Origin: a virus
DNA length: 64,000 nt
IMG/VR virus record: IMGVR_UViG_3300006790_000001
Location: 1-64,000 of that record
Reading direction: 5' to 3' (one strand)
Part shown: positions 10,974 to 57,081 of the stretch, one piece after another
Layout of the letters: every line of letters begins with the position of its first letter
Position numbering within the stretch: the first letter of the stretch is position 1
The notes under the pieces: model-generated
Database searches by the model: none
What the model was told of the DNA's origin: nothing
Seen by the model: the letters and a program-made list of their open reading frames with translations, nothing else
Program-made: the position numbers and the translations under genes

Positions 10974-10974
10974 T

Positions 10975-13566: not shown

Positions 13567-13575
13567 GGGTCAGGC

Positions 13576-38124: not shown

Positions 38125-39699
38125 ATGACAGCGGTTCAAGTCGATAGCGGGCTGTACCTGCCCGACGGTCGCCTTGACTTGGAAGCCGCAAGAGCGCATG
38201 GCGAATTTCTCCTTGGGTTGATGAAGGAAGCTTCGTCACCCGAGGAGATCGCCGCTGTCCAGGCCGCTATCCGAAAGCACGCCCATGTGGTGGCGTTCGA
38301 TTCTCCAGCTCGGCTGGCTGAAGCGACCGACCCGGAGTGGCAGTCAGCGCCTCATCTGGAGCTGATCAGCGACACGATCCGGCGGTCGTTGACCGAACGC
38401 GTGACGGCCATCATCGAGGTGCCGGTCCGTCACGGGAAGAGCGAACTGATCAGCGCTCACGGACCTGCCTGGTATTTAGAGAATGTTCCGAACGGCAAGG
38501 TCATCAGCCTCAGCCACTCGCTTTCCCTTGCGGAGGAATGGGGGCAGCGGAATCGCGACCTGATCGAAGACAACCCAGATCTGTTCTGGGCTGCTCAGGT
38601 CCGGTCAGACAGTCGCCGGATTCAGCAATGGAAGACAACTGCGGGTGGCGTGATGATCAGCGTCGGCGCTCGGGGATCGATCACTGGTAAGGGTGCCAAC
38701 CTGATGCTGGTAGACGACCCCGTGAAAGACGCTGAGCAGGCGTTCAGCCCTGCCTATCGGGAGAAGTTCCGGCGATGGTGGCAGATGACGATCCGTACCC
38801 GCATGCAGCGAGGGGGGTCGATCGTGATCGTGCAGGCTCGTTGGTGCGAGGATGATCTGGCTGGCTGGCTGCAAGAGCATGCGGCTGAGAATCGGTTCGC
38901 TACCCAGTGGGAAGTGATCAGTCTCCCTGCTTTGGCTGAGCCTGGGCCTGAAGAAGCTGAGGCTGATGGTTTCGATCCGCGAAAGTGGCGGGACCCTGTC
39001 GGTCGGAAGATCGGCGATCCGTTGTGGCCTGAGATGTGGAGTGCTGACGAGCTAGAGGTGGCTAAGGCTGACGTCGGCCGGTTGGCTTGGCGGGCGCTCT
39101 ATCAGCAGAAGCCAGTTGATGCTGAAGGGACGTTGTTCCCTGTTGAATCGTGGACGTACGTCGATTCGACCAAGGTCCCGTCGCTCGTGTCGATTATCCG
39201 CAAGTGGGACCTTGCTGCGACGATGGACGAAAGTTCTGACCCTGACTGGACGTGTGGCGTCTTGTTTGGGAGGGACATCCAGGGGTTCAGTTACGTTCTG
39301 GATGTGGTGCGGTTTCGGCAGGGTCCGGCGGCGACTGACCGGATGATTGCTGCGACGGCGAAGCGGGACGGGCTTCAAGTGCCTATCAGCTTTGATCAGG
39401 ATCCGGGTTCGGCTGGTAAGCGAGATGCTGCTTATTTGGCTCGTGAGGTCGTCCCTGGGCACACTGTGAGCTTCGAACCGCCACGGGGTAAGAAGATGGC
39501 TCGGGGGTTTGCTGGTCAGGTGCAGCTTGGGAATGTGCGTCTGGTGAGGGCTGGTTGGAATTATGAGTTCGTGACTGAGCATTCAAAGTTTCCGGGTGGG
39601 CGTCACGATGACATGGTGGATGCCGCTGCTGCAGCGTTTGCGAACACTGTCGATGGGCTTGCTGTGGGTGGGGCGGTCGGCAGCTCGGTTCGCAGCTGA
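38125..39699 (+). CDS. terL: terminase large subunit
   Basis: ATPase motifs: VPVRHGKSEL (Walker A-like) and LMLVDDPVKD (Walker B). Also QARWCEDDLAGWL. C-terminal nuclease motifs: WDLAAT... and GGRHDDMVDAAAAAF. Confidence 0.9.
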   Translation: MTAVQVDSGLYLPDGRLDLEAARAHGEFLLGLMKEASSPEEIAAVQAAIRKHAHVVAFDSPARLAEATDPEWQSAPHLELISDTIRRSLTERVTAIIEVPVRHGKSELISAHGPAWYLENVPNGKVISLSHSLSLAEEWGQRNRDLIEDNPDLFWAAQVRSDSRRIQQWKTTAGGVMISVGARGSITGKGANLMLVDDPVKDAEQAFSPAYREKFRRWWQMTIRTRMQRGGSIVIVQARWCEDDLAGWLQEHAAENRFATQWEVISLPALAEPGPEEAEADGFDPRKWRDPVGRKIGDPLWPEMWSADELEVAKADVGRLAWRALYQQKPVDAEGTLFPVESWTYVDSTKVPSLVSIIRKWDLAATMDESSDPDWTCGVLFGRDIQGFSYVLDVVRFRQGPAATDRMIAATAKRDGLQVPISFDQDPGSAGKRDAAYLAREVVPGHTVSFEPPRGKKMARGFAGQVQLGNVRLVRAGWNYEFVTEHSKFPGGRHDDMVDAAAAAFANTVDGLAVGGAVGSSVRS

Positions 39700-42547: not shown

Positions 42548-42803
42548 GAGACCCCGATGCCCAGAATGCTTTAACTTCGAAATATTCTGTGTTTGCGCTA
42601 ACCACTTGTTCGACGAACTAAACGAATCGTTTCAAGAGATACTGGAAGAGTACGAAGAAACACATATCCGAGAACGTCTTATAGACGCTATGGATCGCAA
42701 TGTCGTGATCGTATTCTTTCCTAACGGCGACACTTACGAAGTAAGTCCGCACTGTAACTGCGACGTCTGCGACGAGGTAGTTCATCGGCTCGGGTGGACC
42801 TGA
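42540..42803 (+). CDS. hypothetical Cys-rich protein (87 aa), lower-GC gene
   Basis: Track ORF. It carries three Cys clusters, in order: CPEC, CVC, and CNCDVC. It looks AT-richer than its neighbours. Confidence 0.45.
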   Translation: MAERPRCPECFNFEIFCVCANHLFDELNESFQEILEEYEETHIRERLIDAMDRNVVIVFFPNGDTYEVSPHCNCDVCDEVVHRLGWT

Positions 42804-42844
42804 GGTGTAGCATTCGCAAGCATCGACCCGAGGAAGAGCGCCAC

Positions 42845-44458
42845 ATGGTATCGATCCCCGAGCGACGGCGTCCAACACGCTATGACTTGCCCGTCGACCT
42901 AACTTCTCATCCGCTCGCCGCTAAGACAGCAGCGGTCGCCCCTCTGACGACCTTCACGAGTGTCCACGAAGCGGTCGCTCAGCAAGAGTGGCAGAGGAAG
43001 ATCATGGACTGGGTCGTAGAGGGACCTGGCGTCTTGGGTTTCGCCCTGAACCTTAAAGCGACTGTTTGCGCACTCGGTCGTTGGTATGTGGCCGAGCCGG
43101 ATTCGAGCGGCGGTTGGCGCAGGGTCCAGTCGGCTAAGGAACAGGCGATTCTTCACGCTTATCGCGGCGTCAACGGCGAACCGCGAGAAGAGCTGTTTCG
43201 GCAGCAGATGTTCACGACTGAATCAATCGGCGAGTTCTTGCTGGCCACCCACAACACAGACCACGGGCCGCGATACGAGCTTCTGCAGATGAATCAGATC
43301 GCCGCTGACCGGGTCGGGTCCGGCGATTACCTTGCGATCCAGGACACCCCGGCGCAGCGGCGTCAAGACACCGAGAACGACAATGACTATCTCCGCTACC
43401 TGCCGAAGGACCAAGTCGTCCGCATATGGCAACGGAACCCGTGGTGGCCTAACCTAGCTCACAGCCAGATGCAGCGAGCCGTGCCAGATATTGAGCGGCT
43501 CATCAGCTCGACCAGACGCATCAAGCGGCTGTCCGACTCTCGTCTGGTCAATAACGACATAGTGTGGCTAGCTGCCGAAGCTGCCATGCAGTACGCCGGG
43601 CTGGGCGACGAGCAGCGGCGAGCAGACTTCCACCGCGATTTCCGCAACCATGCTCAGAAGACTTTCACCGAGTATGGCGGCGTCGCCGAGGTCGCCCCGT
43701 TCACGCTTTCGACCGGCTACCAGTGGGGGCCGCCGATGCGGATCGACATGGGCGATCCGATCGAGGAATATGACCTTGCTGCCGAAGACTCTGGTTACAA
43801 GGCGATCGGCCGTGCGCTCGATCTGCCGATGCGAGTGTTCTTCGAATCCGAACAGGGCGGCAACCACTGGTCGGATTGGTTGACCGAATCGCAGTTCATT
43901 CGCACAAGCGCCGAGCCTTCAGGCCAGAAAGGTTTAGACCAGCTGACAATCTCGTGGCTCCGACCCATGTACGAGTTCTTGCAGTCGGTCGGCTGGCTGC
44001 CCGACCAGATCGATCCCCAGAACCGGCGGATCATGCTGGACATGTCTGGCGTCCTCAAGAACCCCGACGAGTCAAAGGCGCTTCTTGAGGCGTACCGGTA
44101 CGGCATCCCGAGCAGGGACACTGTCGCCAAGCGAGGACTCAACCTCACCGAGGACGAGATCATGGAGATGCCGTCCGACTATGACGATTTCCGAACCTGG
44201 GCCGAGTTCGTTGCCCGCCCTGTCGGCGGGAAGCCGATGGGGCCGGACGCTTTCGCCGATTCGAAACCACCAGAGCAGGCACGCCTGGCATCTGCGTTGA
44301 GTGCTGGCCAAGAGAACAACATCCCGCCCCAGCTGCTCGGTCTCGCTCTCAGGTCAGTTGAGCTGGAACCGGACGACTCGATCAGGAAAGCCGAAGAGGT
44401 CGTCTATCTGGATCATGACGCATACGCCGAAGACTCTGACCTTCTGGAGCTGCTGTGA
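42845..44458 (+). CDS. portal protein
   Basis: 537 aa from ATG 42845, preceded by GAGGAAGAG. The size, the position between terminase and the MuF-like gene, and the acidic C-terminus all fit a portal protein. Family not determined. Confidence 0.65.
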   Translation: MVSIPERRRPTRYDLPVDLTSHPLAAKTAAVAPLTTFTSVHEAVAQQEWQRKIMDWVVEGPGVLGFALNLKATVCALGRWYVAEPDSSGGWRRVQSAKEQAILHAYRGVNGEPREELFRQQMFTTESIGEFLLATHNTDHGPRYELLQMNQIAADRVGSGDYLAIQDTPAQRRQDTENDNDYLRYLPKDQVVRIWQRNPWWPNLAHSQMQRAVPDIERLISSTRRIKRLSDSRLVNNDIVWLAAEAAMQYAGLGDEQRRADFHRDFRNHAQKTFTEYGGVAEVAPFTLSTGYQWGPPMRIDMGDPIEEYDLAAEDSGYKAIGRALDLPMRVFFESEQGGNHWSDWLTESQFIRTSAEPSGQKGLDQLTISWLRPMYEFLQSVGWLPDQIDPQNRRIMLDMSGVLKNPDESKALLEAYRYGIPSRDTVAKRGLNLTEDEIMEMPSDYDDFRTWAEFVARPVGGKPMGPDAFADSKPPEQARLASALSAGQENNIPPQLLGLALRSVELEPDDSIRKAEEVVYLDHDAYAEDSDLLELL

Positions 44459-47283
44459 CCACGATCCCGATCGGTGTTCTCCGAGCCTCTAAAGCAGCAC
44501 AGCAAGTAGCGGAGCCGACATCCGAAATCGTTGAACGCCTGTTGCAGGCATTCGAACGAGGCGAGCTGTCCGAGAAAGAACAGCAGGCTTACGCCGTCTG
44601 GATGGCTCGCCACGACGGCGAGAGCGGCACCCCGAACTTTGAGCTGATGGGCGGCGAAACTGGTGTCCGTTGGCTCGACGGGATGATGGAGGCCAAAGCG
44701 GCCTCGCTGCAGGCAGAACCCGAAGAAGATCTCGGCCCGACTCGGGAAGACATCATCGCTGGCGCTGTCGAGTATCTGAACATCAAAGACCATGCGACGT
44801 TCATGCGGATCTGGACGGTGCTGGAGATGGCCGCCAAGAACGCTCTGCGCCGGTCAGTAGCAAAGGCAAAGGGGACGATCCGCAACGAAGATCTCAAGGT
44901 CAAGATGGCCGCAGCTGACAGGCCGCTCAATGAGATCCCCGACAATGTTTGGGAGTCAGCGAAGCTGGACACGTCGACCCGCCACATCCTGGAATCCTCG
45001 ATCGCTGAAGCGATCGAAGAGGTGCGGGGGATCTTCTTGGAAGACTCGACGCTGCTGCCGCGCATGGCCGAGATCGTCCAATCGCCGGTCACTGCCGAGC
45101 TGCTCCAGTCGCAAGAAGAAGCAATCGAAGAAGCGGTCCGGTGCCTCGACGGCGAGCTGCTCGACTCGTTCGAAAGTTGGGTCCGGCCGCGCGATGGCGA
45201 ACCGGATTGGATCGTGGCTCCCGGCATCGTCCGGCGGGCGATGCTCATAGCGGGGGGCGCTGATTCGAACGGCCCCACAATCAACGGGTTCCCTTGCAGG
45301 CGAGGCCGGGGCGTAGCTTCTGGTTTCGGGATGCTGAACGGCCCGTTGGCGTTTGAGATGCTTCGGTCCCCGTCGACTAGGGCGGCGGCCGTCGAGATCC
45401 CAGAGAACTTGGCCCCGTTGCTTTACCGCTGGCGGCACGGGTATCTCCGTCAGCCGAAGAAACCGTTTACCCCTCATAAGAATTTGAACGGCCGGACGTT
45501 CAAATTGGGCAACTGGGAGAAACTGCTTTCCCGGCGCAAAGACATCAACGAGTGGCCTTATGTCGACCCGGCAGACGAAGACCTCGACCTGGATCTGTAC
45601 CGGCCAGGCGATCACGACGGCTGTACCTGCGCAGTCTTGCCAGTGGTCGCAGGACGGGGCCGCATAAAGCTCGGCGCAGAATGGTTCGATGCGCAGCTCG
45701 CCGGTCGGTCCCCTGAAGCGCGAGCGGCGTTGTTCAACCCGAGGCAGCCCCGGTGCCCGAAGGGGACCGGTATCACTGCTGGGCGGTTCTCAAACGAAGA
45801 GTTGACGAACTGCAACCCGATGGTCGAGCAGCTCCACACCGAATCTTTGCAAGGCCGAATCGATGAGCTTCAAGCAGAACTAGGCGACAGCCCTTCTCGC
45901 GAGAAGAGGGAGAAACTGGTTGAAGAGCTGAAGATCGCCCAGCTTGAAATGGAGCGCCGTCTCCAGGGCGGGGAGATCGAAGGTCCGGGCGTCACCGACG
46001 ACGTCACTCAGGTCACGGCGGCTGAACCGGACTACGGGGTCCCGATCGATGAGCTAGCTGAACTGGTCGATGAAACAGGAGGCTTCACGGTTCGATCGGA
46101 GGTCGACACGCCCGAATCTGGGTTTGTGGTCGCTGATCCCGAGTTCGCCACGGTCATCTCGGACTGGGACTCGTTGACCGACCAAGAGAAGGACTCGGTC
46201 ATCATCGAATACTTGCTTCGGAACGAGCAGGCGCTGATCGACAATCCCGAAGTGTTCGTAGGGGCTTGGCGGGACTCGGAGACGGGCAAGCTTCACCTCG
46301 ACATGGTGAACCATTTCACCGACCAGTCCGAGGCAGAAAGACTTGGTTCGGAACGGAATCAAATAGCAGTCTTTGACCTTGGAACATTCGATGAGATCCC
46401 AACCGGAGGTACTGGCAATGTCGCAGAAGAAGTCACAGGAGCAGAGTTTGTTTCGACCACGGTCGGGCGAATCCGTGAGTCAGATGGCTCGTCGGCTGAG
46501 GGAGGAACTGGACCGGCGTGGCGGTTCGACCCCGAAGTCGCAAAGAAACTCGTAGCTGAGGGTTGGCGGTACAGCGATCCGTTCCCAGACCCGATTATCG
46601 AATCTCAGATTCAGCAGGCAGCTACTGCTGTGCGGGACGGGGCGTTGCGTGAAGCTGCCGCGGTCCGAGGCAATTTGATCGATATCGCTGCGGCCACTTC
46701 GGGTGAGGTGTTGGGTCTTCAAGAGGACGGCACGATCGAATTTGAGGTGAAGGGTATTGATTCGACTGCTCGCAAGATGAGGGACCGCCACGTCGAGCGG
46801 GGCAAGCCGATGTCTGAGCTGCCTGCGGCGATCAAGGACAGCTTGCGGTACACCTACATTCATGACGACAACAACTACACGTTGGGCGTGCAGCGAACTT
46901 TCGACACGTTGCAACAACGGGGTTGGGAGGTCGTGGAGGTCGACAACTATTGGTCGCCGGGTGACGCTTATTCGGGGATCAACTCGGTCTTGAGGACCCC
47001 TGAAGGTCGGATGGTTGAGCTTCAGTTCCACACGCCGATCAGTTTCTCAATCAAGCAAGACATCCACCTGGAGTACGAGCTTTATCGGGAACTTCCGGCG
47101 ATTGATCCGCAAGCTTGGGATCTTTGGGAATCCATGTCTGAGCGTTGGGACAATGTCAGGGGCCCTGTTGGTTGGCCGCCGATTAATTTGAACACGTTCG
47201 GGGGGTTGGCTCATTTGAGGTTTGATCAGGGGCCGAATCCGAACGAGTTCGAACGAGAAGTTCAGGTCGGCGTGGGCAGATGA
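44455..47283 (+). CDS. MuF-like head morphogenesis protein fused to a Cys-module, coiled coil and RelA/SpoT-like nucleotidyltransferase-like C-terminal domain
   Basis: 942 aa. The MuF C-terminal signature ..HKNLNGRTF......YRPGDHDGCTCAVLP lies at about 45480-45640. The Cys-module is at 45733-45834. The C-terminal 46741-47097 carries an RSH-like motif order. GTGA-coupled to the portal gene. Confidence 0.65.
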   Translation: MTTIPIGVLRASKAAQQVAEPTSEIVERLLQAFERGELSEKEQQAYAVWMARHDGESGTPNFELMGGETGVRWLDGMMEAKAASLQAEPEEDLGPTREDIIAGAVEYLNIKDHATFMRIWTVLEMAAKNALRRSVAKAKGTIRNEDLKVKMAAADRPLNEIPDNVWESAKLDTSTRHILESSIAEAIEEVRGIFLEDSTLLPRMAEIVQSPVTAELLQSQEEAIEEAVRCLDGELLDSFESWVRPRDGEPDWIVAPGIVRRAMLIAGGADSNGPTINGFPCRRGRGVASGFGMLNGPLAFEMLRSPSTRAAAVEIPENLAPLLYRWRHGYLRQPKKPFTPHKNLNGRTFKLGNWEKLLSRRKDINEWPYVDPADEDLDLDLYRPGDHDGCTCAVLPVVAGRGRIKLGAEWFDAQLAGRSPEARAALFNPRQPRCPKGTGITAGRFSNEELTNCNPMVEQLHTESLQGRIDELQAELGDSPSREKREKLVEELKIAQLEMERRLQGGEIEGPGVTDDVTQVTAAEPDYGVPIDELAELVDETGGFTVRSEVDTPESGFVVADPEFATVISDWDSLTDQEKDSVIIEYLLRNEQALIDNPEVFVGAWRDSETGKLHLDMVNHFTDQSEAERLGSERNQIAVFDLGTFDEIPTGGTGNVAEEVTGAEFVSTTVGRIRESDGSSAEGGTGPAWRFDPEVAKKLVAEGWRYSDPFPDPIIESQIQQAATAVRDGALREAAAVRGNLIDIAAATSGEVLGLQEDGTIEFEVKGIDSTARKMRDRHVERGKPMSELPAAIKDSLRYTYIHDDNNYTLGVQRTFDTLQQRGWEVVEVDNYWSPGDAYSGINSVLRTPEGRMVELQFHTPISFSIKQDIHLEYELYRELPAIDPQAWDLWESMSERWDNVRGPVGWPPINLNTFGGLAHLRFDQGPNPNEFEREVQVGVGR

Positions 47284-49415
47284 CTGCGGTTGTTGTTAGC
47301 GGCAACGAGTCGGGCAACCCGTACCACTGCCCGGCCGGTACCGGTCTGACCGCCGGGAGGTTCACGAACGAGATCGGTGGGTCCTGTCACCCCGCGACCG
47401 AGCAGCTGTCCGATGCGGGCCTGGAGCAGCGGAAGAAGGCGCTTCAGGATGCACTCAACGGGGAAGGGCTCAGCGCTGACCGTCAGGAGAAGCTGAACGA
47501 GGAGATGGCCCTCGTTCGCGCCGAGGAAGCCCGACGGGCCGGGTCGGCCGAAGGGGACTTCGACATCGACCCCCTTGCCCCCAGCCTCGCTGACCCGTTC
47601 GACCCGAACATCCACACCGACATCCCGAAGCTCGCCGACTGGGCCCCGGACGGGCTCCCGATGATCGACCCGGGCCACGGCCTACCTGAGGTCCCCGACC
47701 TGAGCGGTCTCGCCAGGTGGGCTGATGGGCGACTGCGGATGAACGGTCTTCTTGAGGAGACCGAGGTCACGGCTGAGGATCTTGTCAAGATGCGAGAGGC
47801 TCTGGCAGCGCATCTGGCGAATCCTCAGGGGGAGTGGCTGCAGGCGACCATCCTGGCGAAGCGGGCGATCATGGCGGCGAACGGGGGGGACATCCCGGAA
47901 GACCTGACGTCGGGTCCAACAGCGGAGCACCCGGACAGAAAGCACTTCACCGATATGGACGACTTCGGGGAGGTGGCTCTACGCGAACTGGACAGGTACC
48001 TGGAGGAGCTTGGAAAGGGAGAGCCTCTTCTGTACCGAGGTCGCAACAAGGGCCACAACCCCGAACAGATCGCCGTGTGGAAGGAGCAAGGCAACCGCCC
48101 GATGGTGTGGGCAGACCTGCTCCCCCGGAGCATGGACTCTGAGGAGTTCGGGTACTACAGCGACTGGGAGCAGGCCGGAGTCTTCCCCCCTGGGTCCGCC
48201 CTGCGCGGCAACGGGCGTTCTGCCAGGCAGCTCGTGAGGTACTGGGAAGCGGTCGAGCAGCTGCAGATGCCAGAGAGCGAACTGCTCAACCCGGACAAGC
48301 ACTACTTCAACTCGGCCCAGAGCTTGGCTGGCGTCCTTAGCCAGCTCCCGGCCAAGCTCGGCGGTGGCGGGTACACGCGTACCGCCGGACTCTCCCGAGA
48401 CACAGCGTGGGGAAAGGCGTGGTTTGACGAACTCACCAAGATGGCCCGTCGGGCGTGGCCGATAACGCCGACCCCGATCCCCGACTTCGAGATCATCCCC
48501 GACCAGATCGATATCCGCCCAACGCCGGACCCGAAGTTCTGGGAGAACACGCCCCGAGGTTTCTCCCCGACACAAGAGGTAATCAGGGGACCGGACATCG
48601 GCCCCGACGCCGAGTCGTTCAACAAGCATCGCATCGTGGCCGACCTGGCTGCCGCAACCGGCGTCGAATACGAGACCGTCGACTCGGTTATTGCCGGATG
48701 GGCGTCGATGGATCACCGGTTCTACTCGATTCAGGCCACCGCCGACAAGATCCTTGGCGGCAACGGAACGCACGATTCTGGGTACGGGAAGTTCGCCTAC
48801 GACAGGGACTCTCTTGAAGAGCTTGGGCTGGACTCGTTCTCGTACAAGCAGGTCCGCCACCCCGAAGAGACTGAGAAGATCTTGCGGGCCATGTACTCAC
48901 AGACCCAGGGCTTCCTGGAGGGGGCCGGGGTCGACACGCTGCAGCTTCACCGCGGGGCCGGATGGAGCATCAATTCGGACGGCGACAACCGGAGGATCCC
49001 TCATCAGATTCGGGACATTGTGCTGAACGCCAGCGATGAAGAACTGGCGGCGAACCGGATCACCGTCACTGGTGAGTGGGATCGGAACCCGATGACCTCT
49101 TGGTCTTCGGACTATGACATGGCCGACCAGTTTGCCGCCACCGGATCGAACACCTTCGCTGTCATCCAGTCCGTTGACGCACCGAGGGAGGCCGTCATCG
49201 GCAGTTGTCGAACCGGCGTCGGTTGTCTCAGGGAATCAGAGTTCGTTCTCCTCGACACGGGCGGCGACGCTCACTTTGAGGTCTTCCTGCGTCCACCTGG
49301 CACCAGCTCGCGAGAGGAGCCGAGGTCGATGACTCGGGCCGAGTGGGAAGCAGTGTTCGACAGAATCGAGTTTGAGACCGGGAGAGACTTCGATTCGGAG
49401 ATGGAGGCAGCATGA
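47280..49415 (+). CDS. large virion-associated effector candidate with a C-terminal ADP-ribosyltransferase-like domain
   Basis: 711 aa. The Cys-module at 47313-47408 is followed by a coiled coil. An R-S-E pattern is present: LQLHRG (R at 48951-48953), TSWSSD (49098-49109), and RESEFVLL (E-S-E at 49233-49241). Confidence 0.55.
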   Translation: MTAVVVSGNESGNPYHCPAGTGLTAGRFTNEIGGSCHPATEQLSDAGLEQRKKALQDALNGEGLSADRQEKLNEEMALVRAEEARRAGSAEGDFDIDPLAPSLADPFDPNIHTDIPKLADWAPDGLPMIDPGHGLPEVPDLSGLARWADGRLRMNGLLEETEVTAEDLVKMREALAAHLANPQGEWLQATILAKRAIMAANGGDIPEDLTSGPTAEHPDRKHFTDMDDFGEVALRELDRYLEELGKGEPLLYRGRNKGHNPEQIAVWKEQGNRPMVWADLLPRSMDSEEFGYYSDWEQAGVFPPGSALRGNGRSARQLVRYWEAVEQLQMPESELLNPDKHYFNSAQSLAGVLSQLPAKLGGGGYTRTAGLSRDTAWGKAWFDELTKMARRAWPITPTPIPDFEIIPDQIDIRPTPDPKFWENTPRGFSPTQEVIRGPDIGPDAESFNKHRIVADLAAATGVEYETVDSVIAGWASMDHRFYSIQATADKILGGNGTHDSGYGKFAYDRDSLEELGLDSFSYKQVRHPEETEKILRAMYSQTQGFLEGAGVDTLQLHRGAGWSINSDGDNRRIPHQIRDIVLNASDEELAANRITVTGEWDRNPMTSWSSDYDMADQFAATGSNTFAVIQSVDAPREAVIGSCRTGVGCLRESEFVLLDTGGDAHFEVFLRPPGTSSREEPRSMTRAEWEAVFDRIEFETGRDFDSEMEAA

Positions 49416-51754
49416 CTGACGTATTTGAAACATGGGACCGAGACAGGTTCGAAGACGCCTGGGGCCCGATAGCTTCACCGACCGCCGAAGAGATCGCCGA
49501 AGCGTTCGCCTCGCAGATCTCAACAGCGGTCAAGTACTACTCGTTCCTTGAAGCCGGTGGCCAAACCGAAGGACTCTTTCGCGTCACCTGGCTCTCCCAC
49601 CCCAACTACCGACGCCCCATACCCGGACGCAGCGAACTGATGGTCGACGACGAATGGGTCGAATGGCCAGCACTGACCCGGCACTTCGTGCCTGGAGGGC
49701 TCGGCCTCCAAGGCTACGAAGAATCATCCGATCGCGTCATAGAAGTCGAGCCCCCGATCAGCGCAGCAATCACCATCACCGAAGGCGGCCGGGGCGGCAA
49801 CCCTTACCACTGTCCGCCAGGGACCGGGATCACCGCCGGTCGGTTCACAGACAAAGACGGCTCCCACTGCCACCCCCAGACGCAGCAGCTGTCAACCGAC
49901 GGCATCAGCCTGCGCGTCAACCAGTTGCTAGCGAAACGCACACGGGACGGCAACTCAAAGTTGATCGAACGCGAACTGCGAATCGCCATGGAAGTTCTCA
50001 GCGAACGATCCGAGAACAGGCCCGGCAAGAACCCAGAGAAATTAGGGGCCAGCGCCAAGATCGAGATGGAATCGCTCGGGTTCGTGATGGGAGACTCGGC
50101 GGAAGTCGAAACCGCTGGCCGGATGGAAGACCTCGGCGACGAGTTCTGGAACGATGTTCAACCCTCGACGGTGAACCTTGAAGAACTCAGCCAGCAAGGC
50201 CGCCTCGTGGTCACTGAAGACCATGTGTGGTCTAAGCCGATTTCGAAGGTCGTGTGGGGCGACGAGAAACTGAGAGGCGGATACTTCATCCTTCTCTACG
50301 AGAACAAGGACAACAATTACGTTGTTGTTGACGGCCACCATCGAGTGGCCATGCACACCTTGCTCGGGACAAAGAACGTGCCCGTCAGGATCGCTCCCGT
50401 GATCCCAGTGACGGCAGCGTTCGACACCGCTCCGTACGCAAAGGAAGTCCCCCCAGGTGACCTTGGGGTCCCTGGCTTTGCCGAAAGTTTGAAGCGCGGA
50501 TACAACCCGTACCGTTGCCCGGCGGGTACCGGTCTGAGCGCCGGGCAATTCACTGACGCTGCAGGATCGACTTGTCACCCGCAGACCAAGCTGCTGGAAA
50601 CTGATTCGATCTATGACCGGTACAACGACATTGCCCGGGCGATGTCAAATACAGACGACCCCGAACGGCTACGGGACCTCGCAGCGGAACGCTCTCTCGC
50701 TATAGACGAGCTGCGCAAACGAGGCGCTATGAAACCGGGTGACCGGGTCAGGGCCAAAGGCGAGTTCTTTACGCTGGACGAAGAAGGCTGGCCGGTCGAT
50801 CAGGACCGAGAAGGAACCATCGCTCAGATCTTCATCTCGAAAGACAACCGGCCCAGCCACGCCACTGTCTATTTCGATGACCGGACTCGCGGCGTGATGC
50901 TCCTCGACCGGATGGAGCTGGCCCCTTACAAGACGCCCGCATCCGAGCGGCACGCAGAGACTTCGCACAGTTCGCTGGAAGATGCGTTTGCTTGGAATGA
51001 ACCCAACCAGACCGCCAGCCTGGCGCTCTCGTCCTTGGGGTTGACGGAGTTCATGCCGGATGAAGAGATCGCCGCAACTTACGAGTCGGCGATCCGAGGC
51101 GCTTACGAGTCGAGCGAGATGCTGCAAGAACTGGCGTCCGAGTACGGGTACCCAGACTTCAGGTTGATGAGGAGCGACTGGAACCAGTTCTCTGAAGCTA
51201 GGGCTCTGGAGAGGAAGACTGGTCGGGTCGGCGGCGTGACCACGTTCTTGAGCGCCGGGGCAAACATGGACCCGTACCCGGATTACGCCCCGTTTGTCGC
51301 TCTTCACCGGAACGTTTTCGTGGGATTCCAAGCAGAAGAGGGTTGGGACAATCCGACTGAGGCGTGGCCCCTGGAGAGGGCTTCGGACGCCGGGCTTCCG
51401 CGACAGCTACGAGATCCCGACAGGTTCGATTCGACAATTGTTGACCCGTCGATCACCGGGACCGTGGTGCATGAGTTGGCGCACTATTACGAGCGGCGGA
51501 TAGCTGAAACAAAGCCGAGACCGGTCCCTGAATCCCGGTTGCAAGACAATCCTGAACTCCAGAGCTGGATGGACAGAGGTCGTCGGGCAATCAGCAACGA
51601 CGTGTCGCCTTATGCTTCCGAGTCGGCCACTGAGCTGGTCGCTGAGTTGTTCACAGCGATGACTCACGAAGACTTTGATCAGGAAGAGTGGCGAAAGAAC
51701 GGCCCGGTGGGGATCTCTAAGATCTTCGACAAGGTGAGGGAGTACTACTCATGA
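49412..51754 (+). CDS. large virion-associated effector candidate with a ParB-like nuclease domain and an HExxH metallopeptidase motif
   Basis: 780 aa with two Cys-modules (49796-49891 and 50501-50596). YVVVDGHHRVAMHTLLGTKNVPV is the ParB/Srx signature (DGHHR at 50330-50344). VHELAHY gives HELAH at 51470-51484. Confidence 0.6.
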   Translation: MTDVFETWDRDRFEDAWGPIASPTAEEIAEAFASQISTAVKYYSFLEAGGQTEGLFRVTWLSHPNYRRPIPGRSELMVDDEWVEWPALTRHFVPGGLGLQGYEESSDRVIEVEPPISAAITITEGGRGGNPYHCPPGTGITAGRFTDKDGSHCHPQTQQLSTDGISLRVNQLLAKRTRDGNSKLIERELRIAMEVLSERSENRPGKNPEKLGASAKIEMESLGFVMGDSAEVETAGRMEDLGDEFWNDVQPSTVNLEELSQQGRLVVTEDHVWSKPISKVVWGDEKLRGGYFILLYENKDNNYVVVDGHHRVAMHTLLGTKNVPVRIAPVIPVTAAFDTAPYAKEVPPGDLGVPGFAESLKRGYNPYRCPAGTGLSAGQFTDAAGSTCHPQTKLLETDSIYDRYNDIARAMSNTDDPERLRDLAAERSLAIDELRKRGAMKPGDRVRAKGEFFTLDEEGWPVDQDREGTIAQIFISKDNRPSHATVYFDDRTRGVMLLDRMELAPYKTPASERHAETSHSSLEDAFAWNEPNQTASLALSSLGLTEFMPDEEIAATYESAIRGAYESSEMLQELASEYGYPDFRLMRSDWNQFSEARALERKTGRVGGVTTFLSAGANMDPYPDYAPFVALHRNVFVGFQAEEGWDNPTEAWPLERASDAGLPRQLRDPDRFDSTIVDPSITGTVVHELAHYYERRIAETKPRPVPESRLQDNPELQSWMDRGRRAISNDVSPYASESATELVAELFTAMTHEDFDQEEWRKNGPVGISKIFDKVREYYS

Positions 51755-53649
51755 CGGTCCCGGTCGGCGGCGACAAGATCTATATCAAGCCAAGCGACTT
51801 TGAGTTCTCTGGCCATGCGAGTGTTCCTGATCTGATTCAGTTCGACGCAGAAGAGCAGGCCAAGGTCGATGCTTGGTTGTTGTCTCAGGTGGCTCGGACT
51901 GCTGCGGTCGTGGTGTCTGAGGGGGGCAGTGGCAATCCTTATCATTGTCCTGCCGGAACCGGTCTCACATCGGGGCGGTTCACAGACAGCATTGGTTCTT
52001 CGTGTAACCCGATGGTGAACCAGCTTTCAAGCAAGGGTCTTGAGTCCCGCATGTCTCAGTTGCAGAAGGCGCTGAAGGCTGATGGAGTGAGCAATGAGCG
52101 GCGAGCCAGGCTGGAAGAAGAGATGCGTCTGGTCGAGGTCGAGGCTGCTCGCCGGGCTGACCCGAACCAACCCGAAGGCATGGGTATCTCGGTGGAGCCG
52201 AACGAGGTTCCGATCGCCACTGTCGGGACCCGACTGCCGGACAGCAGCGCCAAGTCGAAGGAGGCTCAGAATCTTCCCCGGAGCCTCGACCCCGGCCTCA
52301 TCATCGACTTCGAAGACGAGAAGACCAGGGCGCTGCTGGAGAAGTGGTTCGGTCAGTACGCACAGTCGGTCCCCGGCCTTCAAGGCATGGGCTTCGATGA
52401 GGCGATGAAGTTCTACGAGGACAACTTGGTCGCAGTGTTTGAGTCCGGCCTCGACCGGTACATGATGGCCGAGATGATCGACGGTGCGCCCCACACGCCG
52501 TTGGCAACCCTCGATGAGGCGCTCGACCGGATCGGCGTGGACAGCATGTGGTACCCGGCCGCTCACAACTACGCCCGGGACCTGGCGCTCGACTTCGACG
52601 TCCCGCCAGCTGTAGCGGTCCAAGCCATTGCAGTGCTCAGCCCGACCTCGGACTGGGACACCAACGTGGTAAACGCCGAGCGCACCCTCCGGGCGATCAC
52701 GGAGGACTGGGCAATCACTGACGCCGATGCCGAGCTGGTCAACGTCGAACTGGGCTATGCGGCCGTGGAGGAAGGGATGCGCCTCTCCGAGATGGACGCG
52801 ATGGTCGCTGGCCGGTCGATCGCTTCGATGTTCCGGGGCCGGGTCGAGACCGACAAGGGGGTCGTGCTCCGAGAGCGGACAGGGAGCCGGTACCAAGATG
52901 AGCACGCTCTCGTTGACTCGATGGTCGTGCTCCCGGGTGGGGACTACAAGTTCGTGGAGCGGTTGACGAACAAGGGTGAGCAGATGTTCGCTGCCTCGAA
53001 ATCGTCACGGGAGTACGAGTCCGTTGTCCGCACGATGCGGGTGGTCCAGGACGAGGACGCGACCCCTGAAGACATGTTGACCGAGATCAGCCGCGGGCTC
53101 GGCCTCGGCCACAAGGTTCGAACCTTCTACCGGAACATCGCCGACCCCTGGACCATGACCGATCAGACCGTGACCATCGACTCGCACAGTTTCAGTTCCG
53201 GGCTCGGCTACGGGATCGGGTCCGGCACCGAGATCCTGCGGCCCGAAGCGTTGGGGGGCATGGTCGGCCCGCAGCGGGATCGGGTTCCGGGCGATGAGAA
53301 GGTGAACATGTACAAGAGCCTCGGGCAGTTCGGGACCAACGTCAACGGGTTCCAGTCGACCTACGGTATGATGCAGGAGGCCATGGTCCGAGCGACGGAT
53401 CGCATCAACGAGCAGTACGGCACCGAGTTCCGACCGAGTCAGATGCAGTCCATGACCTGGGTCGAGCACCGACGCCGATGGCCATCCGATGCTAGGAGCG
53501 AGGCGTCCACCGCCGAGATGGCGGCGCTCATGTTTGAGTGGGAGCAGTCCGGCCACGACCCCGAGGTGGGGGAACGGGTCTGGGCCGAGATCGATGAGAT
53601 TCGCTTGCGCGACATAGCAGCTATGGAGGAGCGTGCCAATGCCAACTGA
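51751..53649 (+). CDS. large virion-associated protein of unknown function carrying the Cys-module
   Basis: 632 aa. The Cys-module at 51931-52026 is followed by a coiled coil. The remainder is unrecognised. ATGA-coupled to the upstream ORF. Confidence 0.5.
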   Translation: MTVPVGGDKIYIKPSDFEFSGHASVPDLIQFDAEEQAKVDAWLLSQVARTAAVVVSEGGSGNPYHCPAGTGLTSGRFTDSIGSSCNPMVNQLSSKGLESRMSQLQKALKADGVSNERRARLEEEMRLVEVEAARRADPNQPEGMGISVEPNEVPIATVGTRLPDSSAKSKEAQNLPRSLDPGLIIDFEDEKTRALLEKWFGQYAQSVPGLQGMGFDEAMKFYEDNLVAVFESGLDRYMMAEMIDGAPHTPLATLDEALDRIGVDSMWYPAAHNYARDLALDFDVPPAVAVQAIAVLSPTSDWDTNVVNAERTLRAITEDWAITDADAELVNVELGYAAVEEGMRLSEMDAMVAGRSIASMFRGRVETDKGVVLRERTGSRYQDEHALVDSMVVLPGGDYKFVERLTNKGEQMFAASKSSREYESVVRTMRVVQDEDATPEDMLTEISRGLGLGHKVRTFYRNIADPWTMTDQTVTIDSHSFSSGLGYGIGSGTEILRPEALGGMVGPQRDRVPGDEKVNMYKSLGQFGTNVNGFQSTYGMMQEAMVRATDRINEQYGTEFRPSQMQSMTWVEHRRRWPSDARSEASTAEMAALMFEWEQSGHDPEVGERVWAEIDEIRLRDIAAMEERANAN

Positions 53650-53965
53650 TGGGGTCCGAGAAGGACGACGAGAAGGACGTCAGCGGGAACAAGTCCCGAT
53701 CGAGACGGTCGGCCAGGTCGTCCCGACCTCGGAGACGAGCGGGGTCGACCTTGAATTCGCCGCTGTTGATGAGATGATCGCCCGAGGTGAGACGTGGGAA
53801 GACGACCGTCTGAAGTTCGGCCGGTACTACTCTGAACCGGAAGCCGAGACCGAGGGGACCGAGGTCGAAGAGCCGAGGCTGAAGGAGGCCGAAGATGAAG
53901 CTGGCACCGATCAAACCGCCGAAGAAATGGTTTCTGGAGAAGCCGAAGGATCTGAAGCCGAATAG
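53633..53965 (+). CDS. acidic hypothetical protein (110 aa), possible scaffold-like protein
   Basis: Track ORF. It overlaps the upstream gene by 17 nt and the protease gene by 71 nt, so it is doubtful. Confidence 0.25.
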   Translation: MPMPTDGVREGRREGRQREQVPIETVGQVVPTSETSGVDLEFAAVDEMIARGETWEDDRLKFGRYYSEPEAETEGTEVEEPRLKEAEDEAGTDQTAEEMVSGEAEGSEAE

Positions 53966-54956
53966 CGCCAAGTACATCGGCTCCGAGGCGACCGGTGACC
54001 AGGGGCGGATCGCCGCTTACTACTTCACCTGGGACCAGTGCCTGGAAGAGGGCAACGGTTCTTGCTGGAAGCCAGAGAAGTCTCAGAACGATTACCAGAT
54101 GTTTCATCAGGGGACGGTCGAGACAGCTGAGGGCGAGGTGCTTTCGGTCGGCACTGTTGGCGCTGGCGGGGGTCATGCCCCGTTCACGTTGGACGCCAAG
54201 ACCGCTGCAGCGGTCTACGCCAACACCGACAACCAGCGGTTCATCGCTCGGCTCTACGAGGACGAGGTCGGCGGCTACTTGCTAGGGGCTTTCGTCCCTG
54301 AAGTCACCGAGGAGCAGGTTGCTGAGGTTCGGCGTTCGCCGCTGTCGGCCGATTTCCGGTGGCGTAAGAAGGCTCCGCGATCCAGCGGTGGCCACTTCAC
54401 CGGATACGACAACATCGGGCCGTGGCTGGTGACTCGGCCGGGCTTTCCTCTCGCCCGGGCCGCTTCACTGGCCACGGCTCTAGAACAGCATGAGCCGATG
54501 ACGACGGCCCCGCTCGGCGACGAGCCGTGCTGCGAGGGGTGCGCCACCAAGACGGCTGCCGTACATTCGAATCAGGATTCCAGCGGGCCCGGCTCGCTCC
54601 CTGGCGGGCTCCAGGTTGGTGCTCAGCTCCCGACGGGCGAACCTTTCCAGGGGTTCGAAGACGGACCGGTCGGCCCGCAGATGGAAGCCATGGGTCTGAC
54701 CCCTGGCGGCGGGCAGCCTGAAGCGGCGGCGGGCCCGGACCCGGCTCACGAAGCCCAGATGCAGCAGATGCAAGCAGACATCCGCACCCTTATGAAGCGT
54801 GTTGATGAACTCGAAGGGCTGATGACCGGTCAGATTCTGACCAGTGCTGAAGCACCTGATCTGATCCTTAACGAGGAATCAATGATGCAGGTCGAAGAAT
54901 TCGATGACGCCATGTTCGGCGGTTACCACGTTTACGAGGACGCATCTGCTCGATGA
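53895..54956 (+). CDS. capsid maturation protease
   Basis: N-terminus ..PPKKWF....GRIAAYYFTWDQC......CWKPEKSQNDYQMFHQGTVETAEGEVLSVGTV..GGGHA resembles the actinobacteriophage prohead protease signature from memory (pP..WF...GrvfGH.A.W..CH....C..PP.S...Y..FH.G.v.t.dG....vG). Located upstream of the capsid gene. Confidence 0.6.
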   Translation: MKLAPIKPPKKWFLEKPKDLKPNSAKYIGSEATGDQGRIAAYYFTWDQCLEEGNGSCWKPEKSQNDYQMFHQGTVETAEGEVLSVGTVGAGGGHAPFTLDAKTAAAVYANTDNQRFIARLYEDEVGGYLLGAFVPEVTEEQVAEVRRSPLSADFRWRKKAPRSSGGHFTGYDNIGPWLVTRPGFPLARAASLATALEQHEPMTTAPLGDEPCCEGCATKTAAVHSNQDSSGPGSLPGGLQVGAQLPTGEPFQGFEDGPVGPQMEAMGLTPGGGQPEAAAGPDPAHEAQMQQMQADIRTLMKRVDELEGLMTGQILTSAEAPDLILNEESMMQVEEFDDAMFGGYHVYEDASAR

Positions 54957-55066: not shown

Positions 55067-55311
55067 CTTCGGAACCTGATTACGTTCGACGTGATCGAAC
55101 GTCCGCGACATGTGAGCTTCTCCAAGAAGGCAAGAGTCGCTAAAGCGTTGGATGCTTGAAACAACGTTTAGTTAATGGTTACCCTTCTGGGTAATCGCCA
55201 CCTCGCTCCTTGCGGACAGGGGTCGTTAGACCAAGGGTCTGCGACCAGGCTCACAGAGCAATAAAGTTCCGTTAACGGAACTATTTAAACCTGAATCGCG
55301 AGGAGCGAACA

Positions 55312-57081
55312 ATGGAGAAGTGGGAAGAGCTGCTCCCCGAAGGGTGGCGGCAGATGGACGGGGACGGCGTTAAGTCGCTGTTCCTTGGTCTCAAGGAGAA
55401 GCACCTTGACCTCCAGAAGAAGGCGACGACCTTCGAAGAGGCCATGGTCGTGCGTCAGCACATGCAGGCGATGCAGGGCATCAATGAGCACCTGACTGAG
55501 CAGCGCGAGAAGATCGCTGAGTACCAGGCGGCTACGACTGAAGAAGCCCCCAGCTTCATCGATGACGTGGTTGAGGAAGAAGCTCAGCCGACTGAAGAGC
55601 CTGTGACTGAGGCTGCTGGCGACGGCGACGATGGCGGCATCGAGCCGCCCGCTGCACCTGAGGCTTCCGACGACTTTGAGCCCGAGAACGAGCTGGCCGA
55701 GCTTCTGGCTAAGGCCGCATCGCTCGGTCTCGTTGTCAAGACCGAAGGCGGCGACGTCGTGGCCGACGACGGCGAGGTTAGCCATGAGCTGCATCGCGAC
55801 GGGTTCCGCGCTCCGAGCAAGGACGGCATCGGTTCGCAGCTGACCGACGAGCAGTTCTTCAAGCGTTGGGCGGATCAGATGAGCAGCGATGCTCCTGGTC
55901 GTCACACCATCGCCACGATCAACAAGTTCGACCCGGAGACCACCCTCTCCGATGGTCGCGCTCTCGGCGGCGGCGGTCCTGAGTTCAACACCAAGCTGAT
56001 CCACGACACGCCTGAGCCCTACATCGAGGGCATGGCGTCGGCAGACGGCTACGACGTGGCCCCGGACCCGAAGCTCGCTTCGTTCTGCGGCCCGTTTGAG
56101 ACGATCTACGCCATCCCGGACTGCGTCACTGACGAGCGCAAGGTTCGGTCGCTGTTCCGTCGCATCCCGGCTCGCCGAGGCAACGTGGAGTTCTTCCGCT
56201 CGCTCGGCCTGACCGACGTGTCGGCTCTCAGCGGCATCGCCGAAACTTGGAGCGACGTCGACCAGGGCAACATTGTCGAAGGCGATTTCTCCACCTACAA
56301 GGCTTGCGCCCAGGTGGCTTGCATCAGCGTCGACACCACTGCGCTGGAGCGGCTCTACAGCTGCATCCAGGTAGAGATTCTGCTCGACTACGGTTCGCCC
56401 GAGATCGTGCAGATGTACATGAATCTCATCAGCGCAGCGCACGCTCGTGCCGCTGAAGAGCTTCTACTCTGCCGGATTCGCGAAGAGTCTGTTGCGTACC
56501 AGTGGACGGGCAACTACGGCTCGACTCCGGCGCTCGCTGCTGGCCTCATTCATCTTGTGGCTGTCAGCCAGTTCCGTGGTCGCCTTACCCGTGGCCGCTA
56601 CATCGCTCTGGTCCCGCAGGGTCTTCTCCAGAAGATGGACGCTGTGGATCGTGGCGCTACCGGCGAGATGGGTCAGCCCGATCTTCGGGAGCTGCTCGGT
56701 CGTGCTGGCATTGGCCTCGATGAGCTGATCGATGCTTGCGATCCGGCCAACTCGATGCCTGCTGCGTACACCAGTGCGCTCCCGGCCGTTGGTTACCCGG
56801 GCGTCGGCGTCGCTCCGACTCTTGCGGCGACCGCTGTTTACGGTGCCGAGACTTACCCGGTTCACCTGATCACGCCTTCGGACGGTTTCTACTTTGAGCT
56901 TCCGGCCATCGACACCGGCTTGGTGTCGTCGCCGGAACTGGCACGGCAGAACAGCCGCCAGATGTTCATGGAGACGTTTGAGGGCCTGGACAAGAACGGT
57001 TGCAGCCCTTGGTTCTACGTCGAGGCCACTGTGTGCCACGACAGCGACCGGGCTGGCTTCAACACCGTTAACTGCACCTGA
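55312..57081 (+). CDS. major capsid protein (HK97-fold type) with a long acidic N-terminal extension
   Basis: 589 aa. GAGGAGCGAACAATG provides the RBS. The first ~190 aa are coiled-coil and acidic (scaffold/delta-domain-like). The remainder (..ASFCGPFETIYAIPDC..RKVRSLFRRIPARRGNVEFF..) looks like actinophage capsid proteins. Located downstream of the protease. Confidence 0.7.
   Translation: MEKWEELLPEGWRQMDGDGVKSLFLGLKEKHLDLQKKATTFEEAMVVRQHMQAMQGINEHLTEQREKIAEYQAATTEEAPSFIDDVVEEEAQPTEEPVTEAAGDGDDGGIEPPAAPEASDDFEPENELAELLAKAASLGLVVKTEGGDVVADDGEVSHELHRDGFRAPSKDGIGSQLTDEQFFKRWADQMSSDAPGRHTIATINKFDPETTLSDGRALGGGGPEFNTKLIHDTPEPYIEGMASADGYDVAPDPKLASFCGPFETIYAIPDCVTDERKVRSLFRRIPARRGNVEFFRSLGLTDVSALSGIAETWSDVDQGNIVEGDFSTYKACAQVACISVDTTALERLYSCIQVEILLDYGSPEIVQMYMNLISAAHARAAEELLLCRIREESVAYQWTGNYGSTPALAAGLIHLVAVSQFRGRLTRGRYIALVPQGLLQKMDAVDRGATGEMGQPDLRELLGRAGIGLDELIDACDPANSMPAAYTSALPAVGYPGVGVAPTLAATAVYGAETYPVHLITPSDGFYFELPAIDTGLVSSPELARQNSRQMFMETFEGLDKNGCSPWFYVEATVCHDSDRAGFNTVNCT

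Follow-up and report, generated by a model that had tools for sequence, protein, structure and literature searches.

A cysteine module repeated in four coupled genes of a phage head operon and its kinship with a widespread motif of head proteins

Introduction

Polyvalent proteins are large products of late phage genes that combine disparate enzymatic domains and for which head packaging and injection are predicted (Iyer et al., 2017, PMC5512222). Their hub domains include metallopeptidase, ART, DdrB-ParB, and MuF domains, and RelA/SpoT domains are reported as well. A polyvalent protein of 2811 amino acids (aa) was detected in virions of phi24B (bioRxiv 10.64898/2026.04.10.717836). MuF proteins are also predicted to be head-packaged (PMC5576092), and RelA-like, ART, and metallopeptidase domains are frequent among their cargo (PMC5576092, PMC12226406). 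Widely as polyvalent proteins and MuF toxins are predicted to reside inside heads, the selection and freeing of such unrelated enzymes is unexplained in the literature examined. Here, we analyze a 64,000-nucleotide (nt) stretch of viral DNA (positions 1 to 64,000 of IMG/VR record IMGVR_UViG_3300006790_000001, hereafter the window), in which four coupled open reading frames (ORFs A to D) directly follow the portal gene and share five copies of a cysteine-containing module. The locus is an unusually modular form of the polyvalent-protein and MuF-toxin theme. The link between its module and a widespread motif of phage head proteins is of more interest than the locus itself.

Like polyvalent proteins, ORFs A to D are late genes encoding disparate domains, and a relative (L005) has the corresponding parts in a single 1692-aa polypeptide. 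They differ in that the set is split here into four coupled ORFs, in that every unit has a common handle, whereas term searches of PMC5512222 found no mention of a cysteine, motif, or linker, and in that A to D match no Pfam LPD, ART-PolyVal, or DdrB-ParB model. With the MuF polymorphic toxins, including MuF-RelA/Apk2 (PMC5576092, PMC12226406, PMC3482391), the locus shares the position of ORF A immediately after the portal gene and a RelA/SpoT-type C-terminus; in contrast, the N-terminus of ORF A fails MuF sequence tests and no immunity gene was identified here. The Dar proteins of phage P1 (DarB and DdrB) are head-packaged anti-restriction proteins that include a ParB-like domain and a C-terminal metallopeptidase, the latter being processed before packaging (PMC5512222). 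ORF C similarly pairs predicted ParB-like and zincin-like parts but has no detectable sequence similarity to the P1 proteins, which are not reported to share a repeated tag.

The internal proteins and Alt of phage T4 have an N-terminal capsid-targeting sequence, which is removed by the gp21 prohead protease cleaving after Glu in h-x-E. The handle of the window resembles this sequence as a short candidate signal common to unrelated cargo, with an adjacent candidate protease site (V-x-V-S-E|GG) and an ART-like domain among the cargo. It differs in the absence of sequence similarity and in its motif, which is longer and is also found internally and on portals and protease. Encapsulin cargo-loading peptides and the P22 scaffolding helix-turn-helix are further cases in which a short conserved peptide or a helical hairpin brings unrelated cargo to the interior surface of a shell with the HK97 fold. 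Both are functional analogies only, with no sequence relation; the hairpin of the handle recalls the P22 coat-binding helix-turn-helix. Finally, FlhB, YscU, SpaS, and Spa40 contain an N|PTH autocleavage loop in which the Asn is essential (PMC4620466, PMC2615192). N-P-Y-H occurs in three of the five module copies of the window and in the widespread motif, a resemblance and not an established homology; N|PTH differs in lying in a folded domain, and His and Pro are not universal in the module or the motif.

Five copies of a cysteine module in four coupled ORFs

ORFs A (44455-47283, GTG start, 942 aa), B (47280-49415, 711 aa), C (49412-51754, 780 aa), and D (51751-53649, 632 aa) are encoded by the plus strand. 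As proposed in a preliminary description of this DNA, they are real and chained by 4-nt GTGA/ATGA overlaps, each start lying over the previous stop, and the start of ORF A overlaps the portal stop by 4 nt. The five module copies of that description also translate exactly as quoted, all on the plus strand. Copy A (45733..45834, FNPRQPRCPKGTGITAGRFSNEELTNCNPMVEQL) has a degenerate N-P-x-x-x-x form without His and lies ca. 35 aa downstream from the CxC motif of ORF A. Copy B (47313..47408, GNPYHCPAGTGLTAGRFTNEIGGSCHPATEQL) is at the very N-terminus of ORF B. Copies C1 (49796..49891) and C2 (50501..50596, starting with YNPYRCPAGTGLSAGQFT) belong to ORF C and copy D (51931..52026) to ORF D.

The consensus of the five copies is N-P-x(2-4)-C-P-x-G-T-G-x-[ST]-x-G-[RQ]-F-x(8)-C-x-P, and its core, expressed as C[PA].GTG...G.F, matches these copies and nothing else in the six-frame translation of the window. 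Twelve columns (N, P, C, P, G, T, G, G, F, C, P, and L) are invariant in the five copies. N-P-Y-H is present in copies B, C1, and D, and replaced by NPYR in C2, NPRQ in A, and NSQQ in P0004, the 1692-aa protein of L005. Copies A, C2, and D have R or N in place of the flanking His. The DNA identity between the copies of the window is 57-72%, and no identical run exceeds 13 nt, indicating that the module is conserved as protein. The possibility that the copies act as DNA repeats for recombination was dropped on the basis of the same values.

The conserved unit is longer than the ca. 32 aa initially proposed. It spans ca. 95 aa and is composed of a T-A-A-h or G-G-rich prefix, the module, a helix, a G-D-(I/L)-S turn, a second helix (R-R-x-R-L-E-E-E-x-R-L-V-E), and a P-E-G-x-G-like end. 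The segment following the module had been described as a coiled coil; AlphaFold2 predicts a helix-turn-helix hairpin in its place (47412..47543, plus strand; ORF B aa 45-59 and 66-88; predicted local distance difference test [pLDDT] of 65-85), and the corresponding pattern is conserved in all units.

The module is not a named family, as suspected from the start, and has no Pfam, PHROG, or NCBIfam entry. A search with a hidden Markov model (HMM) of the module, performed exhaustively with HMMER in 1.84 billion representative proteins, revealed that it is conserved beyond this genome, on three other contigs alone. Proteins outside the profile-building set scored E values of 1e-26, 3e-13, and 1e-12 in this library, indicating that the similarity is not due to chance. 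Both Cys are invariant in all 13 copies from the four contigs. No match was obtained with the module profile in a word-indexed search of 5.8 billion proteins, or with a degenerate DNA pattern for the Cys module in IMG/VR and in JGI metagenome contigs. Two matches to this DNA pattern in GTDB genomes contained in-frame stops and were dismissed as chance.

A loop-expanded form of a motif widespread in head proteins

A weaker match of the module profile, P0010, is a bona fide MuF-ART-2H polyvalent protein according to Pfam, with three Cys-less copies of the form G-N-P-Y-H-E-P-R-G-T-R-I-G-G-R-F-A. These repeats resemble the motif N-P-Y-H-D-x-x-G-R-F, which we take to be the canonical form. A DNA-pattern scan of IMG/VR, the exactness of the pattern biasing the census, detected the canonical motif in at least 120 loci (at least 186 copies in at least 154 ORFs), with up to five copies per locus among the matches listed. 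The number of chance matches among these loci was estimated from the information content of the pattern to be a handful. The extended consensus is h-x-K-F-N-P-Y-H-D-E-L-G-R-F-T-(T/S)-A. Variants found in the same loci retain N, H, and G-[RK]-F, and the Pro is replaceable (NHNHD, NENHD, and NSYHD).

The canonical and Cys forms are bridged by intermediates of graded loop length. The number of residues between the His and the G of G-[RQ]-F is 3 in NPYH-Dxx-GRF, 7 in NPYH-APPGTGG-GQF, 8 in NPYH-EPRGTRIG-GRF, and 9 in NPYH-CPAGTGLTA-GRF, the form of the window. The core common to these forms, N followed by G-[RKQ]-F, placed at the start of a cargo unit or following a head anchor domain, is found in all window copies, in which N, G, and F are invariant. 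In MuF proteins, the canonical motif is located ca. 20 aa after the HPNCRC signature, a layout also seen in ORF A. Canonical carriers share cargo with ORFs A to D, namely the X domain and the alarmone synthetase of ORF A, the ART-like domain of ORF B, and DUF7178 of ORF D. Because of the graded intermediates, the same placement after CxC, and the same cargo domains following, the Cys module is a clade-specific, loop-expanded derivative of the canonical motif.

Domains of carrier proteins were recorded with Pfam for 83 proteins containing the canonical motif. The carriers comprised 16 portal proteins (three families combined), 9 Phage_Mu_F proteins, 9 XkdF prohead proteases, 13 ART proteins (three families combined), and 4 Zeta toxins; Gln deamidase, 2H/Acb1-like, and NUDIX domains were each less frequent than the Zeta toxin. 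The motif either joins a head anchor (portal, MuF, or XkdF protease) to a C-terminal extension or, in stand-alone effectors, lies close to the N-terminus. In portals, it is located 15-40 aa past the portal domain and precedes an extension of 100-200 aa. Among the matches listed, 42% of the copies are found no more than 60 aa from the first Met. The motif is the sole feature common to otherwise unrelated stand-alone effectors, as expected of an address label. No Pfam family covers it in the proteins scanned, and no description of it was found in the open-access literature, including the main papers on polyvalent proteins and MuF toxins.

An independent example of neighboring genes that are each tagged is provided by L066 (IMG/VR 3300008738_000041), in which three consecutive head-module ORFs (9441-14388, minus strand) contain five canonical NPYHD motifs. 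These ORFs encode a DUF3626-like protein (491 aa), an XkdF protease (553 aa), and a protein with a ParB-like and an X domain (512 aa).

Units are fused, split, or swapped in relatives

The preliminary description had viewed the locus as a polyvalent protein split into coupled ORFs, and this is directly supported by contig L005 (ENA ERZ21849173), in which A-, B-, and C-type parts are joined in P0004. This protein comprises an A-like N-terminus, a module, helices, an X domain, an alarmone synthetase, a B-type ART-like domain, a second module, helices, and a C-type HExxH domain. The gene order in L005 is portal, P0004, a 657-aa D-like protein (P0008), protease, and capsid protein. In L006, the HExxH domain forms the end of an ORF, and the genes of an 802-aa B-like protein, the protease, and the capsid protein come next.

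The third contig, L003, is ca. 92% identical to the window in DNA through the portal gene, ORFs A and C, and the start of ORF D. Comparison by blastn and blastp showed that the DNA homology is lost 7 codons past module B and is recovered after the first 30 codons of ORF C; the segment in between, which encodes the cargo of ORF B and the start of ORF C (47431..49501, plus strand), is replaced by L003 4020-6256. ORF B of L003 is 768 aa long versus 711 aa in the window, and the remaining identity amounts to 65% for the handle and 32% for the C-terminal domain. The exchange is a recent swap of a cassette, with the module at its border. All orthologous pairs are most conserved in the module, which shows 67-94% identity versus 20-53% elsewhere. 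These comparisons identify the handle as the constant part of exchangeable cassettes. A search for relatives of ORF B in IMG/VR returned none.

The region of ORF C preceding module C1 (aa 1-126; 49412-49790) is homologous, at aa 42-120, to the leader of P0008 (L005 15218-15460), the N-terminal similarity of the two proteins amounting to 34% over 187 aa, handle included. Leaders, besides cargo, have therefore been shuffled between units.

Predicted cargo domains of ORFs A to D

ORFs A to D are predicted to encode five cargo units: an X domain with an alarmone synthetase, one ART-like, one ParB-like, and one zincin-like domain, and a DUF7178 protein. When nine sub-domains of the four ORFs were compared to Pfam at E values of up to 10, DUF7178 alone was matched. 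At least two disparate domains in one polypeptide, as in polyvalent proteins, occur in ORF A (X domain and synthetase), in ORF C (ParB-like motif and HExxH), and in P0004 (fusion of A-, B-, and C-type parts).

ORF A consists of a ca. 420-aa N-terminal region, the module, a helical part, the X domain, and the alarmone-synthetase domain. The X domain (aa 532-664; 46048..46446, plus strand; phrog_3170) recurs in unrelated phages directly after a canonical NPYHD motif (phmmer matches in L029, L038, L066, and L027 with E values of 4e-13 to 2e-5), and these matches make a solid case for a family. A RelA/SpoT-like cargo had been proposed, and aa 761-887 (46735..47115, plus strand) match the small alarmone synthetase SaSAS (PDB 8vx3_A, E 5.9e-12), the XopAD C-terminal region (NF041399, E 5.7e-20), and a head morphogenesis family (phrog_7625, E 7.5e-16). 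The prediction of a RelA/SpoT-type small alarmone synthetase is therefore solid. XopAD-type effectors hold RelA/SpoT-related toxin domains (Zhang et al., 2012, PMC3482391).

A MuF/SPP1-gp7 domain had also been assigned to the N-terminus of ORF A, an assignment that failed every sequence test. No match to MuF (PF04233) was obtained in Pfam at E values of up to 10; comparison with true MuF proteins gave an E value of 1.5 by BLASTP and probabilities of 0.4-5% by hhalign; and a custom HMM built from 20 MuF sequences returned no match for ORF A, an E value of 0.22 for P0004, and an E value of 7e-6 for the positive control P0010. The AlphaFold2 model of residues 1-427 was too poor to be used (mean pLDDT of 44, below 35 for residues 273-412), and nothing below an E value of 0.8 was returned by Foldseek against BFVD. 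ORF A is MuF-like by synteny, its gene being directly downstream from the portal gene, and by its H-x-x-C-x-C motif alone. This motif, PGDHDGCTC (45604..45630, plus strand), is the only stretch of ORF A for which BLASTP and hhalign gave an alignment to the MuF signature H-P-x-C-R-C, and this alignment was non-significant. The N-terminus of ORF A and ORF C had no match in GenBank phages by tblastn.

ORF B contains the N-terminal module, the helical hairpin, a variable middle region, and a conserved C-terminal domain (aa 525-705; 48852..49394, plus strand) for which an ART-like nature had been suggested. The candidate catalytic residues, R558-G559, T-S607-W-S, and E652-S-E, support this suggestion at the motif level since R-G, S-x-S, and E-x-E occupy invariant columns in an alignment of six sequences, the homologues sharing 20-34% identity with ORF B; neither Pfam nor PDB folds gave a significant match. 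The significant Foldseek matches in BFVD (E values of 5e-10 to 8e-8) are unannotated phage proteins, including those of SP-15 and HSE3 and a 1390-aa "head morphogenesis domain-containing" protein. The best non-designed PDB matches, PARP13 and IcmQ, were non-significant (E values of 2.6-4.7); PARP13 has an ART-type fold, and we take IcmQ to have one too. In GenBank phages, ORF B matched two hypothetical proteins of Bacillus phages alone, both devoid of a Pfam domain.

A sequence located upstream from the ART-like domain, NGTHDSGYGKFA (nt 48762, aa ca. 495 of ORF B), resembles the Cys-less motif in the form N-x-x-H-D-x3-G-K-F-A. It was rejected as a genuine canonical-type motif because it is unconserved among ORF B homologues and probably arose by chance.

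ORF C comprises an N-terminal pre-domain, module C1, helices, a ParB-like domain, module C2, helices, and a HExxH domain. ParB-like and HExxH cargo had both been announced, and both are retained here at the motif level. The ParB/Srx-like segment (aa 292-327; 50288..50392, plus strand) contains VVVDGHHRVAMH with the motif VVVDGHHR, and the same 35 residues were matched below threshold by three models, phrog_4715 ParB-like (0.006), NCBIfam SerK (0.011), and SbnI (0.075), and by none in Pfam. The zincin-like region (aa 526-756; 50987..51679, plus strand) harbors HELAH at aa 687-691 (nt 51470-51484) and had no significant Pfam match. It is homologous to the C-terminus of P0004 and to the end of the L006 ORF (blastp identities of 26% across 236 aa, with an E value of 2e-11, and of 30% across 81 aa, with an E value of 8e-5). 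HELAH is conserved in both, and P0004 has a weak BSP peptidase match (E 0.15).

ORF D contains a 50-aa leader, the motif RTAAVVVSEGG, the module, the hairpin, and a cargo that includes DUF7178 (PF23802; aa 266-320; 52546..52710, plus strand). The assignment of the latter domain is solid, with an E value of 8.8e-17 and 62.1 bits for a cutoff of 27, and P0008 scores 65.5 bits for the same family.

Candidate protease sites near the modules

The modules had been described as usually preceded by (V/I).(V/I)(S/T)EGG. This prefix is exact for two of the five copies, C1 (ITITEGG within SAAITITEGG, 49760..49789, plus strand) and D (VVVSEGG within RTAAVVVSEGG, 51895..51927, plus strand), approximate for B (VVVSGNES), and absent for A and C2. 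In the long ORFs of the window, [ST]EGG occurs at only one other position, in the N-terminal extension of the capsid protein (LVVKTEGG, aa ca. 141-148, 55732-55755, plus strand). The latter motif lies within a conserved island (LAELLAKAASLGLVVKTEGG) of this otherwise variable extension, its counterparts being VVKTQGG in L005 and VIHVEGD in L006, and it may be a maturation cleavage site. T4-type proheads cleave at h-x-E|.

A second motif, [KR]-T-A-A, is found among the real genes of the window at the N-terminus of the portal protein (KTAAV, aa 44-48, 42923-42937, plus strand), before module D, and twice in the protease (KTAAAV, aa ca. 101, nt 54198; KTAAV, aa ca. 219, nt 54549; plus strand), and nowhere else. 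In relatives, P-K-T-A-A-(V/I) directly precedes modules. K-T-A-A-(A)-V could be a shared recognition or cleavage site, and the first protease copy, which is conserved in the catalytic domain, may be structural only. Together, the [ST]EGG and [KR]TAA motifs look like shared protease sites, on thin evidence. The prohead protease had no match among PDB sequences.

A candidate procapsid address

Gene order and predicted domains suggest that the locus is the internal-cargo section of a tailed-phage head-assembly operon of the polyvalent-protein and MuF-toxin type. In the model that we propose, the ca. 95-aa handle with which each unit begins, composed of the Cys module and the helical hairpin, would dock the unit to the assembling procapsid. 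Candidate partners are the inner face or the N-terminal extension of the capsid protein, the portal, and the ORF A anchor. The prohead protease would trim the proteins at h-x-h-(S/T)-E|GG and K-T-A-A-V-like sites near the handle; the E|GG type of site is also present in the N-terminal extension of the capsid protein. The freed enzymes would exit with the DNA on infection and act on the host. Trimming and ejection would follow the precedents of Alt and the internal proteins of T4 and of P1 Dar (PMC5512222). Packaging, docking partner, cleavage, ejection, and the enzyme activities of ORFs A to D are what we infer from the genes.

The address reading is the most economical since nothing but the motif unites portal extensions, MuF proteins, and proteases with stand-alone effectors. 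Carriers of the portal, MuF, and prohead-protease types belong to the procapsid, and the effector types are among those for which packaging is predicted. We give the handle model, with or without adjacent cleavage, an even chance of being correct. The broader proposal, that N-x-x-H-D-x-x-G-R-F and its Cys derivative form a general procapsid-loading label, possibly with self- or protease-mediated release, is put forward as a tentative possibility; such a label would be the phage analogue of the T4 capsid-targeting sequence or of encapsulin cargo-loading peptides.

Several observations weigh against this model. The module is absent from the portal and the protease of the window itself. Where the motif is joined straight to a portal or MuF domain, an address is superfluous, and cleavage or release fits this location better. 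The modules of L005 lack E|GG, having KTAA[VI]GGG, and the capsid protein of L005 has Q in place of E. Modeling of ORF B by AlphaFold2 gave no confident fold for the module (pLDDT of 28-40), the poor models being attributable to the small number of homologues. The Cys form, known from four contigs, offers low comparative power, and the status of ORF A as a MuF protein is unconfirmed.

The main alternative, which we consider somewhat unlikely, is that the module and the motif are processing sites that free cargo from an anchor or a leader, by the action of the prohead protease or by Asn self-cleavage via a succinimide. The location of the motif exactly at the junctions of portal extensions, MuF cargo, and protease extensions, where no address is needed, would be accounted for, as would the invariance of the Asn in every variant seen, including those in which the Pro changes (NHNHD, NENHD, and NSYHD), and the resemblance of N-P-Y-H to the N|PTH autocleavage loop (PMC4620466, PMC2615192). 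In addition, ORF B starts at the pre-module motif of ORF D (MTAVVVSGNES versus RTAAVVVSEGGS), as if gene boundaries mimicked cleavage products. However, a motif of at least 12 residues conserved over very different phages is unlike the usual short protease sites, and the capsid protein, the expected main substrate of the protease, has no module. Self-cleavage of the NPTH type requires a folded domain, whereas AlphaFold2 predicts none for the module, and the His is missing in copies A and C2 and the Pro in the first copy of P0004. Stand-alone effectors retain the motif although they have a leader of just 10-50 aa to shed.

The Cys pair could alternatively be a metal or disulfide knuckle that binds nucleic acid or pairs chains, for example tethering cargo to DNA, with no role in targeting or cleavage. 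The sequence C-P-x-G resembles zinc-knuckle turns. Besides the two Cys conserved in every copy, the H-C-P and C-H-P flanks offer up to four ligands in copies B and C1, and dimerization of the adjoining hairpin could supply four Cys. Zinc knuckles and ribbons have three to four conserved ligands, but the two Cys alone are invariant here, and no fold is predicted. Since the commoner canonical motif and the intermediates are entirely devoid of Cys, a zinc or disulfide knuckle cannot be the core function, making this explanation improbable; the Cys pair may stabilize the enlarged loop in this clade. That ORFs A to D are unpackaged, acting as late cytoplasmic anti-defense or toxin proteins with a repeat left over from duplication or serving as a DNA linker for cassette shuffling, is more improbable still: packaging is deduced from gene position alone, a cargo cassette was exchanged beside the module in L003, and units are shuffled among ORFs in relatives, but the module copies are too divergent in DNA to be good recombination substrates, amino-acid conservation of the module exceeds that of its flanks, and the canonical motif goes together with domains of procapsid components, namely portal, MuF, and prohead protease.

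The locus makes it unusually plain that cargo units can replace one another: they are joined in one phage, separate in a second, and swapped in a third, the constant part of the units being a short handle. Following this handle led to a motif that at least 120 viral contigs contain and that is carried by portals, MuF proteins, prohead proteases, and effectors. Should the motif serve as a packaging or release signal, it would directly answer how cargo is selected and freed, provide a sequence rule to predict injected phage proteins, and offer a possible tag to load foreign proteins into phage capsids. If it is a general label, any motif-bearing protein would be packaged and delivered with the DNA. 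If it is not a signal, the locus still represents a clean new polyvalent effector arsenal in a poorly sampled phage lineage.

Genomic context

The head-module setting proposed for ORFs A to D was borne out by PHROG matches of the flanking genes, and the order in the window is large terminase (38125-39699), portal (42794..44458, plus strand; phrog_776, E 1.6e-19), ORFs A to D, prohead protease-like gene (53895-54956, plus strand; phrog_18402 head maturation protease, E 5.7e-18, and related PHROGs), and major capsid protein (55312-57081, plus strand; phrog_777, E 8.4e-15), the latter with a long N-terminal extension. This is the virion- and packaging-gene setting of polyvalent proteins. The window also carries a tape-measure-like protein, an exonuclease, a helicase, and a primase-polymerase, and looks like a tailed-phage genome. 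Comparison of 18 kb with GenBank phages by megablast gave no match, indicating that no GenBank phage is near at the DNA level, and the terminase shares no more than 39% identity with known phage terminases. An identical contig is present in Logan SRR11048275.

Antisense ORFs of 292-385 aa lie opposite the cargo and capsid genes (47979-48860, 52027-52905, and 55285-56442, minus strand). They are most likely spurious since such ORFs are typical of sequences with ca. 60% G+C and are uncalled on the identical public contig. An acidic 110-aa ORF (53633-53965) overlaps both the end of ORF D and the beginning of the protease gene. The possibility of a conserved small ORF at this place was rejected, the 63-aa counterpart at the same position in L005 giving a BLASTP E value of 1.6. 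Finally, a tRNA-Thr (CGT) gene (15589-15668) falls within a listed 314-aa ORF (15235-16179), which is probably not a gene.

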